A DNA stretch of 63,223 nt, counting the filler, from an uncultured bacterium (GTDB taxonomy: Bacteria > DYJV01): NCBI GenBank assembly GCA_964543655.1. It is 5 parts of 5 records of this genome, joined end to end, with 100 filler letters (N's around TTAATTAATTAA, not from the genome) between each part and the next. Parts side by side here need not be neighbours in the genome. Positions count along the whole stretch, not along the records: positions 1 to 6,043 come from CAZIZE010000089.1; 4 more parts are not named here. One strand, written 5' to 3'. The translations under genes and the position numbers were made by a program. Shown one piece after another: positions 43-13,095 of this stretch. The notes under the pieces were generated by a model. It worked only from the letters and a program-made list of their open reading frames with translations. It was not told the DNA's origin and made no database searches. The first letter of the stretch is position 1, and each line of letters starts with the position of its first letter.

Positions 43-246
43 TTAGGGTATTAAGATATAGATTTGGGATTTGGGGATTATATAAACAGTTTTTACCGAA
101 CTTTCCAACACATCTAATATACATTTTAAAATAAATTCTACAAATTTTGAACATTCACCTTTTTTATCACAATTTTCCAAAGCATTATAATATCCATCCT
201 AATTGTCTCGAATAATACTTTCAAGAGGTAAATATTTAAAAATAAA
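43..246 (-). pseudogene. Fic-family protein C-terminal remnant with internal stop
   Basis: Manual translation FKYLPLESIIRDN*DGYYNALENCDKKGECSKFVEFILKCILDVLE resembles the C-terminal helices of Fic proteins; in-frame TAG at 199-201, no start codon, no HPF motif. Confidence 0.6.
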
Positions 247-336
247 AATTTTGTTCTGTTTTTTTATTTTTTACCTTACTGTGCAGAGGTCTTATCAGGA
301 ATAGGTTTTCTTCATTTTAATCAATTTTCGAGTTGG

Positions 337-3300
337 TTACATAACAACTTTTGCAAAAGGAACAATTCTTTCCCAAAAAGAATTCCCACCATGAATGTAT
401 CTGTTTTTCATTTTCTCTGTGTCAACAAATCCATGGTCAGATAATAAATAAAAACTCTGAAAATTTTTTAAAATAGGTAAAATTCCCTTTTTAAATTCAT
501 CCAAAATAATGGTAAAAAGAGGGTATAAATCAAGTGTTGTGCTGTGTATTTTTTCATCTATAAAATTAAAATTAACAATATCATTTTTTGAAATTTTTTT
601 GATTTGTCTCTTTCCTGTAATGTGTTCACCCCATTTTAAAATATTCTTATTTTTTAACATTTCCCTAAAAGAGAAAGTATCAGTATGCCAATTTATTAAC
701 ATTGGGTAGTCAAATACTTTAAAACCAGACTGAATTAACTCATTTTTTATTAAAATCCATAAATCAAACCTTAGTGCATCGAAAATAAATAAATTTGAAT
801 CTATCTGGTTTAAAACATTTTCAATATATAGAATTCCGTCATATTTATCTATGTCCTGGCTATTTTCATAATCGTAAATTAAACTGTTATATAAGTTTGA
901 TACTTTATCAAACAAATCTTTATTAAAATAATCATTTAATTGGTTCTCATACATTAATTTTATATAGGAGAGGTTTAATGGTGCCACTACATTCTGAAAA
1001 ATTTTAACTCCTTTAAATTTATATTTTGAATTTATTAAATTAAAGAAATTCAAAAGTTCATTAAGAATGTGGTCTTTACTCTTTAATGACACCTGAAATT
1101 TATTAATTAAAAGCCTCTGTAAAATTTCATTTCTAATATGCTTCTTTATTATAGCAAATGATTCTGAATCTAAAAATTTAATTAACTCTTCATCTTTAAA
1201 ACTTTTTAAATTAAGCTCATTTATATGCTCATTTAATTCTTTAAAAATATCTGAACTATTAATTATAATGTTGTAAAGTTTTGTCCCTTCAACACTGTAT
1301 TTTGCAAGACTTTCTTTAAGATTGTTATATGTTTGAGATGATTCAGTAATCCAGAAAATAGTCTCTAAATCATCTCCTATTAATTTTTGAAAAAAATCTT
1401 TTAGTTCGCTATATTTTAATCTTTTTCCTTCTATTTCTTTAAGCTTTTCTTTTAAATTAAGCTCTTTTATTTTCCATTTTCCTTTTAATGCTTTTGCTAT
1501 AATTTTTAAAGTATTATCATTAATAAATGGTAAAATTAGTTCCAAATTTATTGTAGAAATATTGTTAAGATATAAAATTTGCATAACTTCATCTTTAAAA
1601 TTCTCTTCACCAATTAAAAAAGTTTCTATTTTTTCTCTATTTTCAGGTAAGTTTATTTGAGAGATAAAATTTTTTATTCCTTCTTTAATAATGTTTTGAA
1701 AATCTATATTAATTTCAGGTGGTTCTTGATTAATAACAAACCCACATTTACAAACAGGTGATGAGAAGAGTTGGGCACTTAAATTCTCATTACATTTTTC
1801 TGGCAATTTTTTTAACATTGAATTAATTTCATAAAAATCATATTTGAAGGTTAATTCTGGCACATAAAAAGATATTTTATTTAAAATTTTAAATTCATTT
1901 GTTGACTCAATTAACTCTTTTAAATTAAAGATATTGTCTGAGTAAAATTTATCATGAGCCTCTTGATAAAAATTAAAATAATCTTCGTAAAAGTCATTCC
2001 ATTTTATTATTAGTTTTTCAAATTCTTGAAATGAATATAGATATTCATCTATTTCAATTAAAAGTCTCTTTCTTTTATTTTCAATCTCTTCTGGTAATAT
2101 TAGAGCGTTATCAGTGAGATACAAATAAATTCTATTTATCTGGTGAAATTCTTTATTGAAAAATAGAAACAAAGAATCTAAATATTCTATATTGTTTTGA
2201 AATTCTGGATTTTCTTTCAGATAAGCAAGAAAAGCTTCAAGCTGTTCAGATGGTGATCCAGTTAATTTTATTGAATTTAAAAAAATTTTTAAATTATTTA
2301 TCAAAGATTCATCTAATCTAATTTTAGAAAATATAGTATAATCTTGATATTTATCAATATATTTTTCTATTTCAGAAATCTTTTTTCGATATTCACGAAT
2401 AAATTTAGATACTTCTTTCCACATATGTTTCTGGGTTACAAAAGTTGGAACATCTTCTGTTTCTCCCCATATAAAAGCTCCATTTTTTATATATGGCAAA
2501 TATTTATGATTAATTGTTTTTCCCTGTTTTAAAAATTGAATTTCTTTAAAAAATTGGTTTATATCTTTAAAATCAACAGGTTCATTAAATTCATTAAAAG
2601 GGATAAGATAGCCAGAAACTATTAAAACAGAGATTAGAATATAAAATCTATTATATGTTAATCCCCATTTACCTTTTTTAAAAATAGTTCTTAAATTAAA
2701 AATGTTTTGCTCATGATTAACAACATTTAAAATGTTTGAAATTAATTCATTGTTAACATCTATTTTTAAATAAAAATTCTCATTTTTTTTCTTTATAATT
2801 CCAAGAGGATTTAGAAAATTTTCAATTAAAGAAAAGAAACCTTTTTTATTTGCATCTTCAAATGAAATTTTTCCTTTTAAAATAAAATTATTAAAAAGAT
2901 TGGTTAGTTGAGCTTTAGGAACATAATCAATAAGTGGCATTATTTCAAAGTGTTTATAATGAACAGAATTTAAAGGAGTGTCAAAAACTGTTTTTAAAAA
3001 TTTTTCAAAAGGTAAAATTCCTGCTTCTTCAAGGTTTAAAATTACCTGATTATCACCTGATATAATTTTCCCTTTAAAAAATTTATCTGTAACAATTTCT
3101 TTAAATTCAAGCTCTTCCTTTTTTATTTCATCTGATAATTCATTATATTTATGTTTTAAATTTATTTTGCTGAAATAATTTATAATAAAATTAATTTCAT
3201 AATCTGAAAAAGGTGAAAGTTGCCAAAAAAGTATCAATTTTAAATATTGATTGTCATTGAATAGTTCTTTTAATGATTTTATCCAGTTATACTCTTCTAT

Positions 3301-4863
3301 AAAAGGGGATATAATACATAGATAACCATCAACATTTTCAGCAACATAAGATAGAAATCTCTCAAATTCATATTTCTGAGGAACTTTAAATATTGGCAAA
3401 ATAACAGCCTCTCTTTGAGTATTTTGCCATATAAATTTAACTTTTCTACCTTCTAAGACATTGTTTAAAGGTAGAAAATTATATTTTAGATTTTTTAAAA
3501 TTGTTTTAAATAAAAACTCCTTATTATGAAATTTTTCAGTCTCTTTTTTTATATCAGCTTTTATTTTTAAAACTTCTTTAATTGATGCATCTATAAAGTA
3601 GGTTTCACCATCTTTTTTTAAAAACATTCTATTTTGAACAAGTGGTTCTAATATTCCATCTTTAACAAATTCATAATTTATATTTTCATTAAATGTTGAA
3701 AATTTTTTCAATAAGATTTCAGCTATCTCTCTATAATTTTTTCTTTTTTCAGATGGTGAAATTTCAGTTAGTATAAGTATTTTTATAATAGAGAGAGCTG
3801 TTTCTGTTAATTTGTCATTTTTAATTATAGAATCAATATTCTGTTTGTAGTAGAGATATACAGATGTTACAAATGCTGTATAGTCAGGTATTTCTCTAAT
3901 TCTATCTTCAAAGTTGTCATAAATTTTATCAGCAGTAATAAGGTAATCGTAAGGCTTTTCTAAATTTAACTTTACTTCATTAACAACAAAGTGAATAACC
4001 CCTCTATGCTGGGAAAAAATTGGAGTTAGCCCTGATAAAAATTTAACTGTTATTGGATGCAGAGGATATGTTTTCTTAAAATTATCAAATGAAATCTTAA
4101 AATTAGGATAGTAGTTTTTAAAATTATTAAAAACCTCTTCTATAAATTTTTCTGCTCCTCTTTTCTTAAGAACAATTCTTTTGTCAATAATATCTTCTAT
4201 GTGTGAGGAAGTTAAATTAATTTTTATAGGGTATCTATCTTTAATCCTGTTGAACATAGAAGATGATATGTGACCTGTATCCTCTATCCATTCTTGCAAA
4301 GATGCAACAATCCATAATGGGTTATTAAAAGAATACTCACCAAGATATTGTAAAAATCTCACATCTTCATAAAAAGATGCTGGATTTTCTTTTGAACGTA
4401 AAAATTCACTTAATTCATCAATTATAATAACAGTTGGCTTATTTATACATTTTTTAAAAACTTCGTCTCTATTTAAAACTTTATTCTGATAATCAAAATA
4501 TTCCAATATTATACTTTCAAGGGATCTTGAAGATGGGTATTTGGTTAATAAAATTTTTTTTGTGTTTGTATGAGGAAAGTTTTTAAATTCAGGAAAGTTA
4601 TCCTTTATTTTTTTACAATCATTTAAAATAATATATAGATATGACAAAAAATGAGATTTTCCACTTCCAAAATTACCTTTTACAAATATTCCGGAGCCTT
4701 TATTTTTATAAATTTTTTCAAGAATAATTTTTAATGCCTTAAACACCTCGTCAGTTAAAACAAATGATTGGTATAAATTATCTCTATTATTATCAATATC
4801 TTCAATATTAATAACAAGATCAATATTAGGAATTTCTACAATATCTTTTAATTTTTTTCCCAT
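337..4863 (-). CDS. BrxC/DUF6079-like P-loop ATPase fused to a C-terminal PglZ-like (alkaline phosphatase superfamily) domain
   Basis: 1508 aa; Walker A GNFGSGKS, Walker B VIIIDELSEF, YPLHP motif, C..CKCGF motif; C-terminal FIFDALRFDLW, IDEKIH, LLSDHGF, HGGNSFWERIVP. Confidence 0.75.
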   Translation of the reverse strand: MGKKLKDIVEIPNIDLVINIEDIDNNRDNLYQSFVLTDEVFKALKIILEKIYKNKGSGIFVKGNFGSGKSHFLSYLYIILNDCKKIKDNFPEFKNFPHTNTKKILLTKYPSSRSLESIILEYFDYQNKVLNRDEVFKKCINKPTVIIIDELSEFLRSKENPASFYEDVRFLQYLGEYSFNNPLWIVASLQEWIEDTGHISSSMFNRIKDRYPIKINLTSSHIEDIIDKRIVLKKRGAEKFIEEVFNNFKNYYPNFKISFDNFKKTYPLHPITVKFLSGLTPIFSQHRGVIHFVVNEVKLNLEKPYDYLITADKIYDNFEDRIREIPDYTAFVTSVYLYYKQNIDSIIKNDKLTETALSIIKILILTEISPSEKRKNYREIAEILLKKFSTFNENINYEFVKDGILEPLVQNRMFLKKDGETYFIDASIKEVLKIKADIKKETEKFHNKEFLFKTILKNLKYNFLPLNNVLEGRKVKFIWQNTQREAVILPIFKVPQKYEFERFLSYVAENVDGYLCIISPFIEEYNWIKSLKELFNDNQYLKLILFWQLSPFSDYEINFIINYFSKINLKHKYNELSDEIKKEELEFKEIVTDKFFKGKIISGDNQVILNLEEAGILPFEKFLKTVFDTPLNSVHYKHFEIMPLIDYVPKAQLTNLFNNFILKGKISFEDANKKGFFSLIENFLNPLGIIKKKNENFYLKIDVNNELISNILNVVNHEQNIFNLRTIFKKGKWGLTYNRFYILISVLIVSGYLIPFNEFNEPVDFKDINQFFKEIQFLKQGKTINHKYLPYIKNGAFIWGETEDVPTFVTQKHMWKEVSKFIREYRKKISEIEKYIDKYQDYTIFSKIRLDESLINNLKIFLNSIKLTGSPSEQLEAFLAYLKENPEFQNNIEYLDSLFLFFNKEFHQINRIYLYLTDNALILPEEIENKRKRLLIEIDEYLYSFQEFEKLIIKWNDFYEDYFNFYQEAHDKFYSDNIFNLKELIESTNEFKILNKISFYVPELTFKYDFYEINSMLKKLPEKCNENLSAQLFSSPVCKCGFVINQEPPEINIDFQNIIKEGIKNFISQINLPENREKIETFLIGEENFKDEVMQILYLNNISTINLELILPFINDNTLKIIAKALKGKWKIKELNLKEKLKEIEGKRLKYSELKDFFQKLIGDDLETIFWITESSQTYNNLKESLAKYSVEGTKLYNIIINSSDIFKELNEHINELNLKSFKDEELIKFLDSESFAIIKKHIRNEILQRLLINKFQVSLKSKDHILNELLNFFNLINSKYKFKGVKIFQNVVAPLNLSYIKLMYENQLNDYFNKDLFDKVSNLYNSLIYDYENSQDIDKYDGILYIENVLNQIDSNLFIFDALRFDLWILIKNELIQSGFKVFDYPMLINWHTDTFSFREMLKNKNILKWGEHITGKRQIKKISKNDIVNFNFIDEKIHSTTLDLYPLFTIILDEFKKGILPILKNFQSFYLLSDHGFVDTEKMKNRYIHGGNSFWERIVPFAKVVM

Positions 4864-5735
4864 TTTTCAGCTTTTTTTAAATATCCATAAAGTTTTTTGG
4901 CATTTGGTTTTTTTGCAAGAATTTCTTCAATTAATTTTTTAAAACCTGAATAATCTTTTTTAGCTTCATATATTTTAAAAACAGTTTGTATTAAAATATT
5001 GTCTTCTGGCTCTTTAAAAAGAACTTCCTGCAAATACTTCAAGGCATTTTCAAAATCTTTTAATCTATAATATGTGTATCCAAGCATTTTGTAAAGAAAA
5101 AAGCTTTCTTTAATTGTCATAAGATTTTTATAAATTTTTAAAGCATCTTCAAATCTGTTACTTTTTCTATAAAATCCTGCAAGTAATAGATTTAAGTCAT
5201 AGTCATCTTTGTAAGAGGGTAAGATCATAAGATTTTCAATTTCATTAATAGCATCAGAAAGTGGTAATTTTTCAAATTTCTCTTTATAAATTTTATAGTT
5301 TCTATTTTTTTTGTTACTATTTGATTTTATCTTTATTGGCAATTTATTTATTAATTTTTTTGATTCATTTGTTGAAAAATTCCTTTCAATAACGCTTTTT
5401 AAAAAATAGTAAAATTTATCACTGAAATCTGGAAGATCTAAAATAATACTCTGAATAAAATCTTTTATCTCCTCTCTATTCTTTCTCTTTTCTAATATAA
5501 GTATATAAGTCTGATTAAAAAACTCATCATTTTTAAATTCACCCAATAAATTATTTGCCTTAGTATATGCTTCATCTATTTTATCAATTTTATTTAATAA
5601 AAAAATTTCATACTTTTTTAAAAAGTTATTTGTAGGATAAATAGCAAAAGCTTCATTTAATAATTTTAAAGCTTCTTCTAAATTGTTATTTTTTTGGAGA
5701 GAAATTAATTTACTGATATATTTTTTTAATGTCAT
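4848..5735 (-). CDS. Tetratricopeptide-repeat protein
   Basis: 295 aa with TPR-like helical pairs (LAGFYRKSNRFEDALKIY, LGYTYYRLKDFENALKYLQEVLFKEP); overlaps the start of the ATPase gene by 16 nt. Confidence 0.8.
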   Translation of the reverse strand: MTLKKYISKLISLQKNNNLEEALKLLNEAFAIYPTNNFLKKYEIFLLNKIDKIDEAYTKANNLLGEFKNDEFFNQTYILILEKRKNREEIKDFIQSIILDLPDFSDKFYYFLKSVIERNFSTNESKKLINKLPIKIKSNSNKKNRNYKIYKEKFEKLPLSDAINEIENLMILPSYKDDYDLNLLLAGFYRKSNRFEDALKIYKNLMTIKESFFLYKMLGYTYYRLKDFENALKYLQEVLFKEPEDNILIQTVFKIYEAKKDYSGFKKLIEEILAKKPNAKKLYGYLKKAEKWEKN

Positions 5736-5935
5736 TTAACTAAACCCAAATTTTTTTACTATATTGCATATTTTTTATTTTTTTTCAAAGAAAATATATT
5801 TTTTAAATCAAAAGATAAGCAAGCATAAGAAAAGTTGAAAAAGATTTACATTTCTCATTAAGAGTTGAACTAAATTTTAAACAAAATCAAGCATAAAATC
5901 ATAAATTCTCAAGATAATTGACAATAATTTACAAA

Positions 5936-6043
5936 AAAGCAATTCCCTTTCTATTCGGGAATGTTCGAATCTTAACAAATCCTTTGTTTCAAATTAGTGA
6001 AGATACAGTCGCAATTCCCTTTCTATTCGGGAATGTTCGAATG
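5936..6043 (-). CRISPR. Trailer end of a CRISPR array (2 repeats, 1 spacer), cut by the contig end
   Basis: 32-nt identical core at 5939-5970 and 6011-6042, period 72. Full repeat on minus strand ATTCGAACATTCCCGAATAGAAAGGGAATTGCGAC with ATTCCC/GGGAAT hairpin; 37-nt spacer 5971-6007; left copy degenerate at its 3' end. Confidence 0.85.
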
Positions 6044-6143
6044 NNNNNNNNNNNNNNNNNNNNNNNNNNNNNNNNNNNNNNNNNNNNTTAATTAATTAAN
6101 NNNNNNNNNNNNNNNNNNNNNNNNNNNNNNNNNNNNNNNNNNN
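6044..6143. other. Artificial contig linker
   Basis: N run with central TTAATTAATTAA six-frame stop. Confidence 0.99.
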
Positions 6144-6617
6144 ATCATTATGATATGCACCATGCATAATTTCATACAATGTATTGTAGCGATTTTCTGG
6201 TTTTTTATTTTCCTGAACAAGGTAAAGATATTGCGCGTACATCCCTTCAATTGTTAAAGGCAAATTTGGATTAGAAACTTTAAATCTATTTCTGTAGTAC
6301 CTGCTCAATAAATTTTTAATTTTATGAATATTAACCCTCTCCATTTTCAAGTCTTCAAAGCTAATGCTCATATCTTCAAGTGCATTTTTAATTACTGATG
6401 TTTTTGCATAATATGAGATAAGTTTTTTTAAACCTTCAAAATAAGAAAATATACGTGAAGACTCTGCTTCTGTAATGGCTTTTAATTGGTCAAAGTGAGC
6501 ACTTCGCATTCGAGAAGATGACTTTGTAACAGCAATGAAAATAAGTGTTGTAGATAAAAATAGAATGGTTATTACAAGAATAAGTATTAATTTTAATCTA
6601 AACGTAAGGTATTTCAT
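6144..6617 (-). CDS. N-terminal part of a membrane sensor, probably a methyl-accepting chemotaxis protein (truncated by the contig end)
   Basis: N-terminal TM helix followed by Cache-like periplasmic sequence (AQYLYL..N..P, Y...H..YH); ORF runs into the gap. Confidence 0.6.
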
Positions 6618-6638
6618 TTTATTATTAAAATTTATTTT

Positions 6639-7349
6639 CTAAGGGAGCAAAAATTCTCCTCCTCCACTTTCACATGCACTTTTCATTGCACTAATATAGG
6701 ATGAGCCTATTTCTTTATAATATGTAATTTGTGCGAGGGATTCCTGAATCTTTATTTTGCACGCATATGTAAAATCTTGAAATATTGGGCAATGCTCTTT
6801 TACAAGTTGTGAATTCATATATTTACAATATTGTTCAGCAGTTTTCACAACATCTTCTTTATCTATATTTCCCTCAATATAGTATAATTCCAGACAGCTT
6901 GGGAAAGAGCCATTAATTGTATAACCACAATAACCAATTAATTCTTCATTACCATAATTAACACTATTTTTAAGCTTTATCTCTTCAATTAGAAATTTCG
7001 AAATCTGGGTATTAAACTTTAAATTTACAACATATGCTTTTCCATTTAAAAAAAGTTCCGGGATTATCAAATTTCCTGTAACACCATTGAAATAAGGTGT
7101 ATCAGCTGATGTATCGCACATTCCATTAATCTGATACAAACTTTTTAAATCAATTGCTAAAGCAACACCATATGGAGAGGTAGGTGAACTTTCAAGATTC
7201 AATTCTAAATGATAACATAGCTCAGGATGATCCTGAATATAAACCTCTGAAATAATCAACTTTTGACTTTTAGCATCAAAACTAACCTTTTCTGAAAATA
7301 AGAGGGTAGGGATAAAAAGGATAATTAATAAAAAAATCAATCTTTTCAT
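6639..7349 (-). CDS. Secreted hypothetical protein with duplicated beta domain and Cys-rich C-terminus
   Basis: Signal peptide MKRLIFLLIILFIPTLLFS; AGGAGG RBS; 236 aa. Confidence 0.75.
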   Translation of the reverse strand: MKRLIFLLIILFIPTLLFSEKVSFDAKSQKLIISEVYIQDHPELCYHLELNLESSPTSPYGVALAIDLKSLYQINGMCDTSADTPYFNGVTGNLIIPELFLNGKAYVVNLKFNTQISKFLIEEIKLKNSVNYGNEELIGYCGYTINGSFPSCLELYYIEGNIDKEDVVKTAEQYCKYMNSQLVKEHCPIFQDFTYACKIKIQESLAQITYYKEIGSSYISAMKSACESGGGEFLLP

Positions 7350-9303: not shown

Positions 9304-10704
9304 TTAAAAAATTGTCTGTTCTAACCTGCTCTCCATCCATGGAAATTTTATTGGATAATCACCATTAAAACATGCATAGCAATAATTTGCAAATTCATTG
9401 CCAAGTGCTTTTTTAAGGCTATCAAGAGAGAGGTACGCAAGCGAATCAGCAGTAATATATTTTCTTATCTCTTCAACAGAATGAGATGAAGCAATTAACT
9501 CCTTTCTTGTTGGAGTGTCTATTCCATAAAAGCATGGATAATTTGTAGTTGGTGAGCTAATCCTCATATGAACTTCACTTGCACCAAACTCTCTAACAAG
9601 CTTAACTATTTTCCTCGAAGTTGTACCTCTAACAATAGAGTCATCTATAAGAATCACCCTTTTATTTTTCAAAATCTCTTTTATTGCATTTAATTTTAAT
9701 TTAACTCCAAAATGCCTGATACTCTGTTTTGGCTCAATAAAAGTCCTTCCAATATAATGATTCCTGATAAGAGCTGTTTCATAAGGAATACCTGATGCTT
9801 CAGAATATCCAATTGCAGCAGCAATTCCAGAATCAGGGATTGGCACAACAATATCTGCATCAACAGGTTTCTCTTCTGAAAGCATTCTACCTAAAACTTT
9901 TCTAAAAGTATATACAGTTTTGTTAAAAACTATACTATCAGGTCTTGCAAAATAAATATGCTCAAAAACACAGTAAGCATGCCTCTTATTTTCTGAAGGA
10001 ATATTATCAAATTTGATTCCATCTTTATCAATTATAACTATCTCACCAGGCTCTATTTCTCTAATATACTTTGCCCCAATTAAATCAAAAGCACAGGTTT
10101 CAGACGATAAAATGTAGCTATCATTTAGCTTACCAAGACAGAGTGGCCTGAAACCAAATGGATCCCGTGCACCAATCAATTTATTTTCAGTTAAAATAAG
10201 AAGGCTGTATGCTCCTTTTATCTGATACAAAGCCTCTTTAATACGTGCTATTATGTCATTATGCTGAGAAATTGCTATTAGGTGGACAATAACCTCTGAA
10301 TCCATAGTAGATTGAAATATACTGCCATCTTTTTCAAGTTTATTTTTAAGAATTTCATAGTTAACAAGATTACCATTGTGAGCTATAGCAAGGTATCCTC
10401 TAAAATAATTCACCATAAAAGGTTGAGCATTTTGAGAAATTGTCTCTCCTGTGGTGGAATATCTCACATGGCCAATTGCCATGCTACCTTTTAATTTAGA
10501 AAGCAAATCTTCATTGAAAATATCCACTACATGACCAAGTGATGTATGTGCATAAAATTTGTCACCATCTGAAGATACAATTCCTGCACTCTCCTGTCCC
10601 CTGTGCTGTAAAGCATGAAGTCCAAGATAGGTAAGATTAGCTGCTTCAAAATGATTATAAACACCAAATATACCGCATTTATCTCTGAAATACTCTTTTT
10701 TCAT
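9304..10704 (-). CDS. purF: Amidophosphoribosyltransferase
   Basis: CGIFG, LQHRGQESAG, GHVRYST, DDSIVRGTT. Confidence 0.97.
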   Translation of the reverse strand: MKKEYFRDKCGIFGVYNHFEAANLTYLGLHALQHRGQESAGIVSSDGDKFYAHTSLGHVVDIFNEDLLSKLKGSMAIGHVRYSTTGETISQNAQPFMVNYFRGYLAIAHNGNLVNYEILKNKLEKDGSIFQSTMDSEVIVHLIAISQHNDIIARIKEALYQIKGAYSLLILTENKLIGARDPFGFRPLCLGKLNDSYILSSETCAFDLIGAKYIREIEPGEIVIIDKDGIKFDNIPSENKRHAYCVFEHIYFARPDSIVFNKTVYTFRKVLGRMLSEEKPVDADIVVPIPDSGIAAAIGYSEASGIPYETALIRNHYIGRTFIEPKQSIRHFGVKLKLNAIKEILKNKRVILIDDSIVRGTTSRKIVKLVREFGASEVHMRISSPTTNYPCFYGIDTPTRKELIASSHSVEEIRKYITADSLAYLSLDSLKKALGNEFANYCYACFNGDYPIKFPWMESRLEQTIF

Positions 10705-10713
10705 ATTAAGCCC

Positions 10714-13095
10714 TTACTTTTTCTTATTATTGCTCAGTGCTATACTCAATACCTCATCCATATGCTTAACAAAAACAAATTTCAAACCTTTTTTTACTTT
10801 TTCTGGAATATCTTCCATATCTTTTTTATTTCTACTTGGAACAATGATTATCTCTTTTTTAGCTCGTAGTGCAGCAAGACTCTTCTCCTTTAACCCACCT
10901 ATTGGTAAAACTCTTCCTGTTAAAGTAATTTCACCTGTCATACAAACTTCTTTTCTAACAGGAATTTTGCTGAGCGCTGAAATTAGTGCAGTAGTAATTG
11001 TTATTCCAGCAGAGGGACCATCCTTTGGTATTGCACCAGCTGGTACATGTATATGAATATCTTTTTTTTCAAATAACTCCCTATCTATATTGTAAAATCC
11101 TGCTCTACTCCTTGCATATGTAAGAGCAGCCTGTGCTGATTCTTTCATAACATCACCTAATTGACCTGTTAGTATGAGTTTACCATTTCCTTCTACAAGC
11201 ATTACCTCTATATATAAAACCTCTCCTCCATACTGTGTCCATGCAAGACCTGTTGCTATTCCAATAGAGTTTTCCAAAATATCATCATCTGAAATATATT
11301 TAGGCACACCTAAAAATTTATTTAAATTTCTTGCTGTGATGTTGTAAAAATCCCCTTCATTAAGAGCAATGTGCTTTGCAACTTTTCTACAAAGAGTGCC
11401 AATATTTCTCTCTAAATTCCTAACACCAGATTCAGCAGTATATTCATTGATAATTTTTAAAATAGCTTTATCTGTAACTTTAATATTCTCTCTTTTCAAT
11501 CCATTTTCTTTAATTTGTCTTGGCAAAAGATACCTTTTGGCAATTTGAATTTTTTCATCATCAGTATAGCCACTTATCTCAATTATCTCCATTCTATCCT
11601 TTAAAGCAGGTGGAATAGGATCAATGAAATTAGCTGTTGTAATAAACATAACATTAGAAAGATCAAATGGTACATTAAGATAGTGATCTGAAAATTCCTT
11701 ATTTTGCTCAGGGTCAAGCACTTCAAGTAATGCAGACGCTGGGTCACCTCTAAAGTCCATACCTATTTTATCAACTTCATCAAGCATGAAAACAGGATTA
11801 TTGGTACCTGCTTGTTTAATCCCCTGAATTATTCTACCTGGTAAAGCACCTATATAAGTTCTTCTGTGTCCCCTGATTTCTGCTTCATCTCTAACACCAC
11901 CAAGAGACATTCTGAAAAATTTTCTACCAAGTGCCCTTGCTATTGATTTACCAAGTGAAGTTTTACCAACACCTGGTGGTCCCACAAAGCATAAAATTGG
12001 ACCTTTGGAATCTTCTTTTAATTTTCTAACACTTAAAAACTCCAAAATACGCTCTTTAACCTTTTCAAGTCCGTAATGATCTTCATCAAGAATTTTTTTA
12101 GCTTTTTTTATATCAAGGTTATCTTTAGTTGACTTTTTCCATGGAAGCTCTGTCATCCATTCAAGGTAGGTTCTAATAACTGATGCTTCAGCAGAATCTG
12201 GATGCATTTTTTCAAGTCTTGAAAGCTGCTTCAATGCTTCTTCTCTTGCAACTTTTGGCATTCTTGCTTTTTTTATCTTTTTCTTAAATTCCTCTATTTC
12301 TAAATCTTTATCACTTGTCTCACCAAGCTCTGTTTGTATGGCTTTAAGCTGCTCCCTTAAAAAGTATTCTCTCTGAACTTTATTCATCTCTTCTTTGGCT
12401 TTTGACTGAATTTTAGCCTGCATATTTAATATTTCAACTTCTCTTGTTAAAATAGCATGAACCTGTTTTAATTTATCTATTGGGTCTGTATTCTCAAGAA
12501 TTTTTTGTAGCTCTTCAACTTTTAAGCCTATATTTGCAGATATAAGTTCAGCAAGTCTTGATGGATCAGTGATACCTTCAAGTATCATAACAACTTCCGG
12601 TGATAATATTTTACCAAGAGAAAGCATCTTTTCCAATTTCTCTTTAACATCTCGCATTAATGCTTCCTCTTCATTGGTAAGCTCTGAAACCTTTTTATCC
12701 TCTATTTTTTCTATTTCCACACTAAAATAAGGTTTCTCCTGAATAAACTCTTTTATTCTACCTTTTGAAATCCCCTGAACAAGTATCTTAACTCTACCAT
12801 CAGGTAATTTCAACATTCTCATTATCATTGCAATGGTCCCAACTTCATAAATATCATCAATTGATGGGACTTCTTCATTCATATCTTTCTGAGCTGCTAT
12901 AAAAATCAATCTATCCTTTGATAAAGCTTCATCTATTGCTTTTATTGAAAATTCTCTCCCAACAAAAAGAGGAATAATCATATATGGAAATATTACAACA
13001 TCTCTAACAGGCAAAAGTGGTAATTCATCAGGAATCTTAAATTCTTCCTGCTCTTTAACAGATGAATCTAAGTTCTCTTGATTTTCAGGTACCAT
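10714..13095 (-). CDS. lon: ATP-dependent Lon protease
   Basis: [25 protein letters not shown]. Confidence 0.98.

Follow-up and report, generated by a model that had tools for sequence, protein, structure and literature searches.

A BrxC-type ATPase fused to a cap-less PglZ core, with a TPR partner gene, in an uncultured bacterium

How bacteriophage exclusion (BREX) switches on restriction is still an open question, and a system of six proteins is hard to reconstitute. BrxC, BrxB and PglZ form its core (PMC13326643) and PglZ is a nuclease (PMC12205998). In a 63,223-nucleotide stretch of DNA from an uncultured bacterium (the window; GenBank assembly GCA_964543655.1), a single open reading frame (ORF) of 1508 codons without an internal stop joins a BrxC-type (DUF6079) ATPase to a miniature PglZ-like domain (Table 1). 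Is this fusion real, does its small C-terminal domain keep a PglZ active site, and what might such a protein do? Here, we report that the fusion is a conserved gene whose C-terminus, as modelled, is a cap-less PglZ core with the full set of catalytic residues, that it travels with a gene for a tetratricopeptide repeat (TPR) protein, and that no DNA methyltransferase was found among its neighbours at 36 loci. What tells most about the module is its TPR partner and the missing methyltransferase, two features that the preliminary description discussed below had overlooked. The module is a real, conserved and apparently unpublished variant of BREX parts.

The fusion and its ATPase part

A preliminary description had listed the motifs of a BrxC-like ATPase and of a PglZ-like domain, and every one of them is present in the 1508-residue ORF: Walker A (G63–S70), Walker B (IIIDELSEF, with D149/E150) and YPLHP (266–270) towards the N-terminus, and FIFDALRFDLW (D1362), HTDTFSFR (T1396), IDEKIH (D1436 and H1440), LSDHGF (D1476 and H1477) and finally HGGNSFWERIVP, which holds H1491, in the C-terminal part. 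Its view that the uninterrupted ORF is no decay product holds, and the gene is not unique to this assembly: a protein search returned 33 near-full-length homologues (93–100% query coverage, 36–57% identity), together with longer and shorter distant forms, and when the last 187 residues were searched without a filter, 67 proteins came back, including many of 1,400–1,850 residues. Single contigs from two studies bridge the junction without indels, one of run X1, possibly the source sample, across positions 337–1662 with one difference to the window, and one of run X2, from a different study, across 215–1526 with two; the fusion is thus not an assembly artefact. For the comparisons below, 80 loci were fetched from genome contigs with an alignment query; a single-protein query had found none.

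Residues 1 to ~1173 are a DUF6079/BrxC ATPase (Pfam DUF6079, 111.8 bits against a cut-off of 23, E = 2.6e-32), as had been proposed. The best PADLOC and NCBIfam matches are also BrxC models, but they fall under the NCBIfam BrxC cut-off (86 versus 400 bits); the family profile matches the solved BrxC chains 9zll, 9zn5 and 9zdx of the PDB with E of about 1e-10. The conserved RIKDRY motif likely contributes the arginine finger. A predicted structure covering residues 875–1508, and not the BrxC middle domains (mean predicted local distance difference test score, pLDDT, 85.9; predicted template-modelling score, pTM, 0.52), runs from long helices through a strand-helix-helix-strand element, which ends near residue 1173, to a low-confidence hinge, a helical linker and an alpha/beta core. 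The end element agrees with the BrxC C-terminus of PMC12839542 (section 16), and relatives without a PglZ domain terminate at the position equivalent to residue ~1173.

Three cysteines of this part (C1024-x13-C1038-K-C1040) and the upstream H970 are invariant (H, C, C, C in 28 of 28 aligned rows), and H970 probably completes the cluster as a predicted metal site. The putative zinc site of the preliminary description corresponds to this cluster; because the Cys motif is present also in the PglZ-less relatives, we assign it to the BrxC part and not to the fusion. In the structural alignment, the last ~50 residues of the linker match the helices ahead of the PglZ domain in PorX (model residues 3–207 against PorX 172–517), and a fold search with the 875–1508 model gave PglZ-driven matches only, with none through the coiled-coil/Zn part or the linker. 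Direct control of the catalytic core by the ATPase, which had also been proposed, is possible but not supported as stated: the core lies ~900 residues past the ATPase, behind a coiled coil and the low-confidence hinge.

The C-terminal PglZ core

The AlphaFold2 model of the C-terminal domain (pLDDT 87.2) is a fold of the PglZ/alkaline-phosphatase superfamily with the complete catalytic residue set, in line with what the motif order had suggested. Foldseek matches it to PorX (E = 2e-9), and the structural Z scores are 16.3 for PorX (root-mean-square deviation 3.2, 202 residues aligned), 13.3 for the PglZ of 9zn5 and ~9 for other superfamily members (ENPPs). A profile of the C-terminal domain searched against the PDB finds PorX (E = 1.5e-10) and the BREX PglZ 9nv3 (E = 3.7e-8), with its motifs aligned to those of PorX. 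The seven catalytic and metal residues of PorX are D239, T272, D361, H365, D415, H416 and H500 (PMC9757075), and all have counterparts in the fusion. The invariant columns among 29 aligned C-terminal domains, whose mean column identity is 24%, are exactly D1362, T1396, D1436, H1440, D1476, H1477, G1478 and H1491. Since all 29 domains keep the seven PglZ residues unchanged, although they are only 16–42% identical to that of the window, the motif set exceeds what chance would give.

The active site has thus been kept while insertions were lost, as the preliminary description held. The first and last ligands are 129 residues apart (102–185 in the family), against 261 in PorX. At the cap position, between H1477 and H1491, there are 14 residues (11–21 across the 29 members) in place of 76 in one type 3 PglZ and 84 in PorX, and by this spacing the beta-rich cap subdomain between beta5 and alpha6 is absent from all 29. 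Standard models largely pass over the domain. The Pfam check that had been suggested finds DUF6079, but PF08665 (PglZ) gives no match to the C-terminal domain, and the PADLOC and NCBIfam PglZ models match it weakly (E = 0.0013 and 0.0045). When the profile of the family alignment (A1) was compared with one individual type 3 PglZ, the match fell short of significance (probability 1.9%, E = 0.026), although the motifs were in register.

Table 1. Positions of the fusion gene, its parts and its partner in the window
Feature	Position	Strand	Basis
Fusion gene	337..4863	-	ORF call, Pfam DUF6079, 33 near-full-length homologues
AAA+ ATPase head and following helical/winged helix-turn-helix region, residues ~1-445	3530..4863	-	Pfam, PADLOC/NCBIfam, profile versus 9zll/9zdx
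Walker A	4654-4677	-	(Near-)invariant in family alignment A1
Walker B	4402-4428	-	(Near-)invariant in family alignment A1
RIKDRY, conserved	4231-4248	-	(Near-)invariant in family alignment A1
Remaining BrxC part: middle domains, long helices, terminal strand-helix-helix-strand subdomain ending near residue 1173	1345..3529	-	
Predicted Zn site H970, C1024, C1038, C1040	1744..1956	-	Invariant in 28/28 rows and in A1
Helical linker, residues ~1178-1355	799..1332	-	Model of residues 875-1508
Cap-less PglZ/alkaline-phosphatase core, ~150 residues	340..795	-	Profile, AlphaFold2, Foldseek, residue conservation
D1362	778-780	-	Invariant PglZ residue
T1396	676-678	-	Invariant PglZ residue
D1436	556-558	-	Invariant PglZ residue
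H1440	544-546	-	Invariant PglZ residue
D1476	436-438	-	Invariant PglZ residue
H1477	433-435	-	Invariant PglZ residue
H1491	391-393	-	Invariant PglZ residue
TPR partner gene, 295 aa	4848..5735	-	Upstream of the fusion gene; overlaps its start by 16 bases

The TPR partner, the neighbourhood and the distribution

When the ORFs of the first 60 of the 80 loci were clustered all-against-all, the sole large cluster besides the ATPase was a TPR family of ~300–380 residues, present in 34 loci; no other neighbour was conserved in this clustering (BrxB and BrxF were not searched for genome-wide). Thirty-one loci have a visible C-terminal core and 27 of these extend upstream of the fusion by more than 1.2 kb; in 26 of the 27 a profile built from the same TPR family finds the TPR gene upstream of the fusion gene: adjacent to it in 24 (20 co-oriented, 4 divergent) and with a helicase gene between in 2. 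The lone exception, L016, has a TPR orthologue on another contig, 45% identical to that of its clade-mate L014. Full-length family TPR genes stand elsewhere in the genomes of L016 (E = 1.5e-61), L013 (7e-79), L028 (3e-69) and L029 (3e-48); of the four loci cut off upstream, three have the family TPR elsewhere, in one case fused to RecQ, and L004 has only a weaker match (E = 8e-35) within a longer ORF. One more genome, among 40 relatives searched, carries an overlapping TPR–fusion pair. The family terminates in a conserved helix, L-x-G-x-x-K-K, and a search of the ESM Atlas with the TPR partner returned generic TPR clusters only. In one clade (L009, L010, L014, L015, L017 and L018) the TPR gene is divergent to the fusion gene yet adjacent; in L007 a RecQ gene is positioned between the two; and the genome of L029 encodes a family TPR fused N-terminally to a complete RecQ helicase (L095:96–3134, minus strand, 1013 residues).

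Eight loci (L033, L035, L038, L043, L049, L053, L055 and L060), mostly from Armatimonadota/Abditibacteriota, encode DUF6079/BrxC-like ATPases of ~1140–1450 residues without the PglZ core. None has a TPR neighbour and no BREX neighbours were seen; the best TPR matches in their genomes (1e-18 to 1e-27) are like those of non-carriers, and no match at the mini-PglZ level was found there. Since the family TPR was likewise not found in these relatives, which fall in only two lineages of a quick tree, the TPR protein and the PglZ core appear to go together.

A three-chain complex prediction with the ATPase (residues 1–445), the C-terminus (1262–1508) and the TPR protein scored 0.53 against 0.00 for the best control; in the calibration, 18 of 157 solved complexes reach the mark at 0.60 or under, as do both passing mismatches (2 of 215). 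At least 91% of contacts recur between prediction runs, and the partner pLDDT is at least 81. Because replacing the ATPase chain alone, with the PglZ chain kept, gave 0.00, the ATPase part is the indicated contact, and the TPR protein is weakly predicted to bind it.

A Pfam scan of 221 of the 223 neighbour ORFs (at least 130 residues, within 5.5 kb, 36 loci; two were dropped as fusion fragments) found no DNA methyltransferase, BrxA, BrxL, separate PglZ or HerA at E ≤ 1e-8, and neither a HerA/FtsK translocase nor DUF4007 occurs among the neighbours. In the type 3 loci L047 and L050 the same scan did recover both methyltransferase and PglZ. Methyltransferase-like neighbours are an rRNA methylase, an O6-methylguanine repair protein and a generic S-adenosylmethionine-dependent enzyme (L090). 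The source genome, 94% complete, has no match to PglZ besides the fusion, to type 1 PglX or to BrxA, the last sought with PF08849, a model that can miss type 3 BrxA (that of L047 is unlisted at 1e-8); the type 3 PglXI query gave just a 46-residue match (E = 1.8e-4). Of the self-modification genes of BREX (a PglX/PglXI methyltransferase or phosphorothioation genes), no DNA methyltransferase was found in the scanned loci or, with two BREX queries, in the source genome, where phosphorothioation genes were not searched for. BrxA was detected in 4 of the 34 carriers and another PglZ-family gene in 10; most of the 34 assemblies are incomplete.

Sporadic neighbours include PIN (2 loci), HipA, Fic, a match to PADLOC PDC-S37, SNF2 helicases (4 loci), RecQ and transposases. 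One SNF2 helicase family of 820–910 residues adjoins the module at three distant loci (L002:6091–8550, L008:6924–9575 and L037:15256–17982), and 11 of the 34 carriers have a match to it at E ≤ 1e-60, against none of 11 non-carriers. The family may be an optional third component; that it is obligatory was rejected, since it went undetected in 23 of the 34 carriers, this genome among them.

The carriers belong to Nitrospirota, Thermodesulfobacteriota, Acidobacteriota, Myxococcota, Bacillota, Spirochaetota, Actinomycetota, Fibrobacterota, Pseudomonadota and other phyla, which are intermixed in the quick tree (69 rows, with 18 short or redundant locus rows omitted). The fused forms fall on one side of a branch with just 71% support, so that the tree neither establishes nor rules out that the fusion arose once. 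Five genomes from the order of this bacterium, one of them a congener that is 94% complete, all yielded neither the fusion nor the TPR gene. At L012 the fusion gene is broken beside an IS21 element (3977–6741, minus strand, and 9848–12067, plus strand), with its 3' half inverted and upstream of the TPR gene; L031 is broken and L007 frameshifted. A partial family ATPase (L006:1772–2801) lies on a 2.8-kb contig of a record titled Candidatus Micrarchaeota, an archaeon, in whose genome the family TPR was not found; this placement could be a binning error.

The window itself is five contigs strung together through runs of N, the first at 6044–6143. Besides the fusion and TPR genes, the first contig, of 6,043 bases, contains only a short downstream remnant, so ORFs past position 6,043 are not neighbours of the fusion gene; one, at 6096–6617, extends into the N spacer. 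The remnant (46–270, minus strand), directly downstream of the fusion gene, is the C-terminal part of a Fic-family gene with an in-frame stop, labelled by an HPFxDGNGR motif that we take to mark this family; over 41 residues it shares 44% identity with an intact Fic-type ORF of contig C12. One run-X1 contig skips window positions 83–336. The GC content of the contig is 0.232 versus 0.297 for the genome, and equally low in just 1 of 324 six-kb tiles.

Relation to known systems and a proposed mechanism

In the quick tree, the nearest canonical ATPase is that of type 3 BREX (BrxF, BrxC/DUF6079, PglXI, [BrxHII], PglZ and BrxA; for example L047, identified by PADLOC, and L050), to which the fusion family is sister with moderate support (84–88). 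The C-terminal profile also matches the stand-alone PglZ of L047 and L050 (E = 9e-23 and 1.6e-11). In contrast, the fusion holds BrxC and a cap-less PglZ in one chain, and no methyltransferase, BrxF or BrxA was found at its loci, a TPR gene occupying the place of brxF. With the type 1 core BrxC:BrxB:PglZ (PDB 9zll, 9zdx and 9zn5; PMC13326643) it shares a homologous ATPase and the PglZ fold, and it unites in nature the two proteins that BrxB bridges. Nevertheless, no BrxB-type gene, PglX, BrxA or BrxL was found beside it, its partner is a TPR protein, and the large N- and C-terminal accessory domains of PglZ are mostly absent. The type 3 BREX-related (BR) system (PMC12839542, section 33) likewise has a PglZ reduced to its catalytic domain, but one that is separate and capped, beside a DUF499 ATPase, a methyltransferase, a helicase and an inactive STAND protein. 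The PglZ domain of PorX (PDB 7pv7 and 8thp; PMC9757075), the best fold match, belongs to a response regulator and retains its cap.

Among the features of BREX types 1–6, the module thus has the BrxC/PglY AAA+ ATPase, and PglZ as a fused, reduced domain. It differs from type 3 BR in its DUF6079 ATPase, its fused and cap-less PglZ and its lack of a methyltransferase, and from BREX-related capture (BRC) in having neither a HerA/FtsK translocase nor DUF4007 nearby. From its genes and predicted folds, the module would work like a BREX core, and it lies outside every defined BREX or BR type. No description of a BrxC–PglZ fusion or of the TPR partner was found in the full-text literature, which leaves most subscription papers uncovered; in the available part of a 2026 BREX survey (PMC12839542), the words 'TPR' and 'tetratricopeptide' are absent and the reduced PglZ forms are separate genes.

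Because the fusion travels with a TPR gene and without a DNA methyltransferase, a stripped-down two-protein defence system is likely. In type 1 BREX, BrxB binds the AAA+ domain of BrxC, bridges BrxC to PglZ and regulates assembly, and BrxC dimerises via its C-terminus (PMC13326643); PglZ nicks DNA in a metal-dependent manner, an activity that ATP inhibits and that needs the threonine corresponding to T1396 (PMC12205998). We infer that covalent fusion would make the bridging by BrxB unnecessary, and that the TPR protein may take the regulatory place of BrxB on the ATPase head, as a brake or sensor. The trigger would then be an invader protein or a DNA structure rather than missing methylation; the ATPase heads would assemble on DNA, and the PglZ cores, lying beside the C-terminal dimerisation end of BrxC and opened by the loss of the cap, would nick it. 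That the pair is a two-gene, methylation-free offshoot of BREX directed against phages or plasmids, in which the TPR protein gates the ATPase and the PglZ core cuts DNA, is in our judgement an evenly balanced proposition. Its accessory-type behaviour (patchy in the order, low in GC, with a tree that mixes phyla) counts for defence.

Several observations weigh against it. Its defence and nuclease functions are read from sequence and models, the calibration of the prediction tool marks the complex score as weak, and, with no methyltransferase, the basis of self/non-self discrimination is unexplained. The neighbours (221 ORFs, 36 loci) are mostly housekeeping genes and not defence islands, with toxin-antitoxin-type or PADLOC-type genes in a minority of loci, a count that has no baseline. 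No full-length copy was found in 72,556 plasmids, which gave just three weak ATPase matches, or in the viral contigs searched. In some genomes the two genes are kept but stand apart, a pattern expected of settled genes more than of mobile defence cassettes. Small nucleotides, too, are substrates of PglZ-family domains, as in PorX (PMC9757075).

The housekeeping neighbourhoods and the unlinked survival of the pair would suit a BREX-derived machine for DNA repair, recombination or replication forks, in which an ATP-driven DNA-binding scaffold carries a structure-specific nuclease and the TPR protein serves as a helicase adaptor. The RecQ gene within L007, the TPR–RecQ fusion and the SNF2 family beside the module point the same way, but the patchy distribution and low GC do not, the SNF2 family went undetected in most carriers, and SNF2 helicases are common as defence parts too; we consider this reading rather unlikely, though it is the best of the alternatives. 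Less probable still, the PglZ core would be no DNA nuclease but a phosphodiesterase like that of PorX, acting on small (cyclic) oligonucleotide signals with the ATPase/TPR module as its switch. PorX, and not a BREX PglZ, gives the best structural and profile matches, and both PorX and type 1 PglZ cleave cyclic and linear oligonucleotides (PMC9757075, PMC12205998). However, the cap and loop region that contacts the nucleotide in PorX is largely deleted, a change that would favour a polymer over a small ligand; neither cyclase nor CARF-type genes were seen among the neighbours at the 36 loci, and the fused partner belongs to a DNA-binding ATPase family.

The fusion might also be the core of an ordinary BREX system with its PglX, BrxA and BrxB encoded on other contigs of the genome. 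The contig of the fusion measures just 6 kb, and some carriers do have BrxA or a further PglZ-family gene; nevertheless, the near-complete source genome yields only the 46-residue PglXI match and none to PglZ, BrxA or type 1 PglX, and 30 of the 34 carriers, mostly incomplete assemblies, show no BrxA match, which makes this very improbable. A decayed or mis-assembled BREX remnant, as the Pfam miss and the broken relatives L012, L031 and L007 might suggest, is effectively refuted by the many near-full-length homologues, the catalytic residues invariant in so divergent a domain and the two-study contigs across the junction.

We return to the two-gene offshoot of BREX. Avs and NLR-like STAND-TPR-effector defence proteins combine a TPR sensor, an oligomerising P-loop ATPase and a nuclease effector. 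By analogy only, the present module would have the same parts in another arrangement, its TPR being a separate protein, its ATPase of the BrxC type and its effector an alkaline-phosphatase-fold domain. A free TPR sensor might then have replaced BrxB in a methylation-independent immune system, giving an NLR-like sensor–ATPase–nuclease switch with a tiny cap-less nuclease; we put this bolder form forward as tentative. If true, such a switch would be a minimal model of how BrxC activates PglZ. The ~150-residue core represents the alkaline-phosphatase fold in a naturally minimal form, and with a natural BrxC–PglZ chain that has a single small partner and lacks a methyltransferase, the coupling of ATPase and nuclease becomes directly testable with two genes. 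If the two-gene reading is true, a BREX core can operate without DNA methylation.

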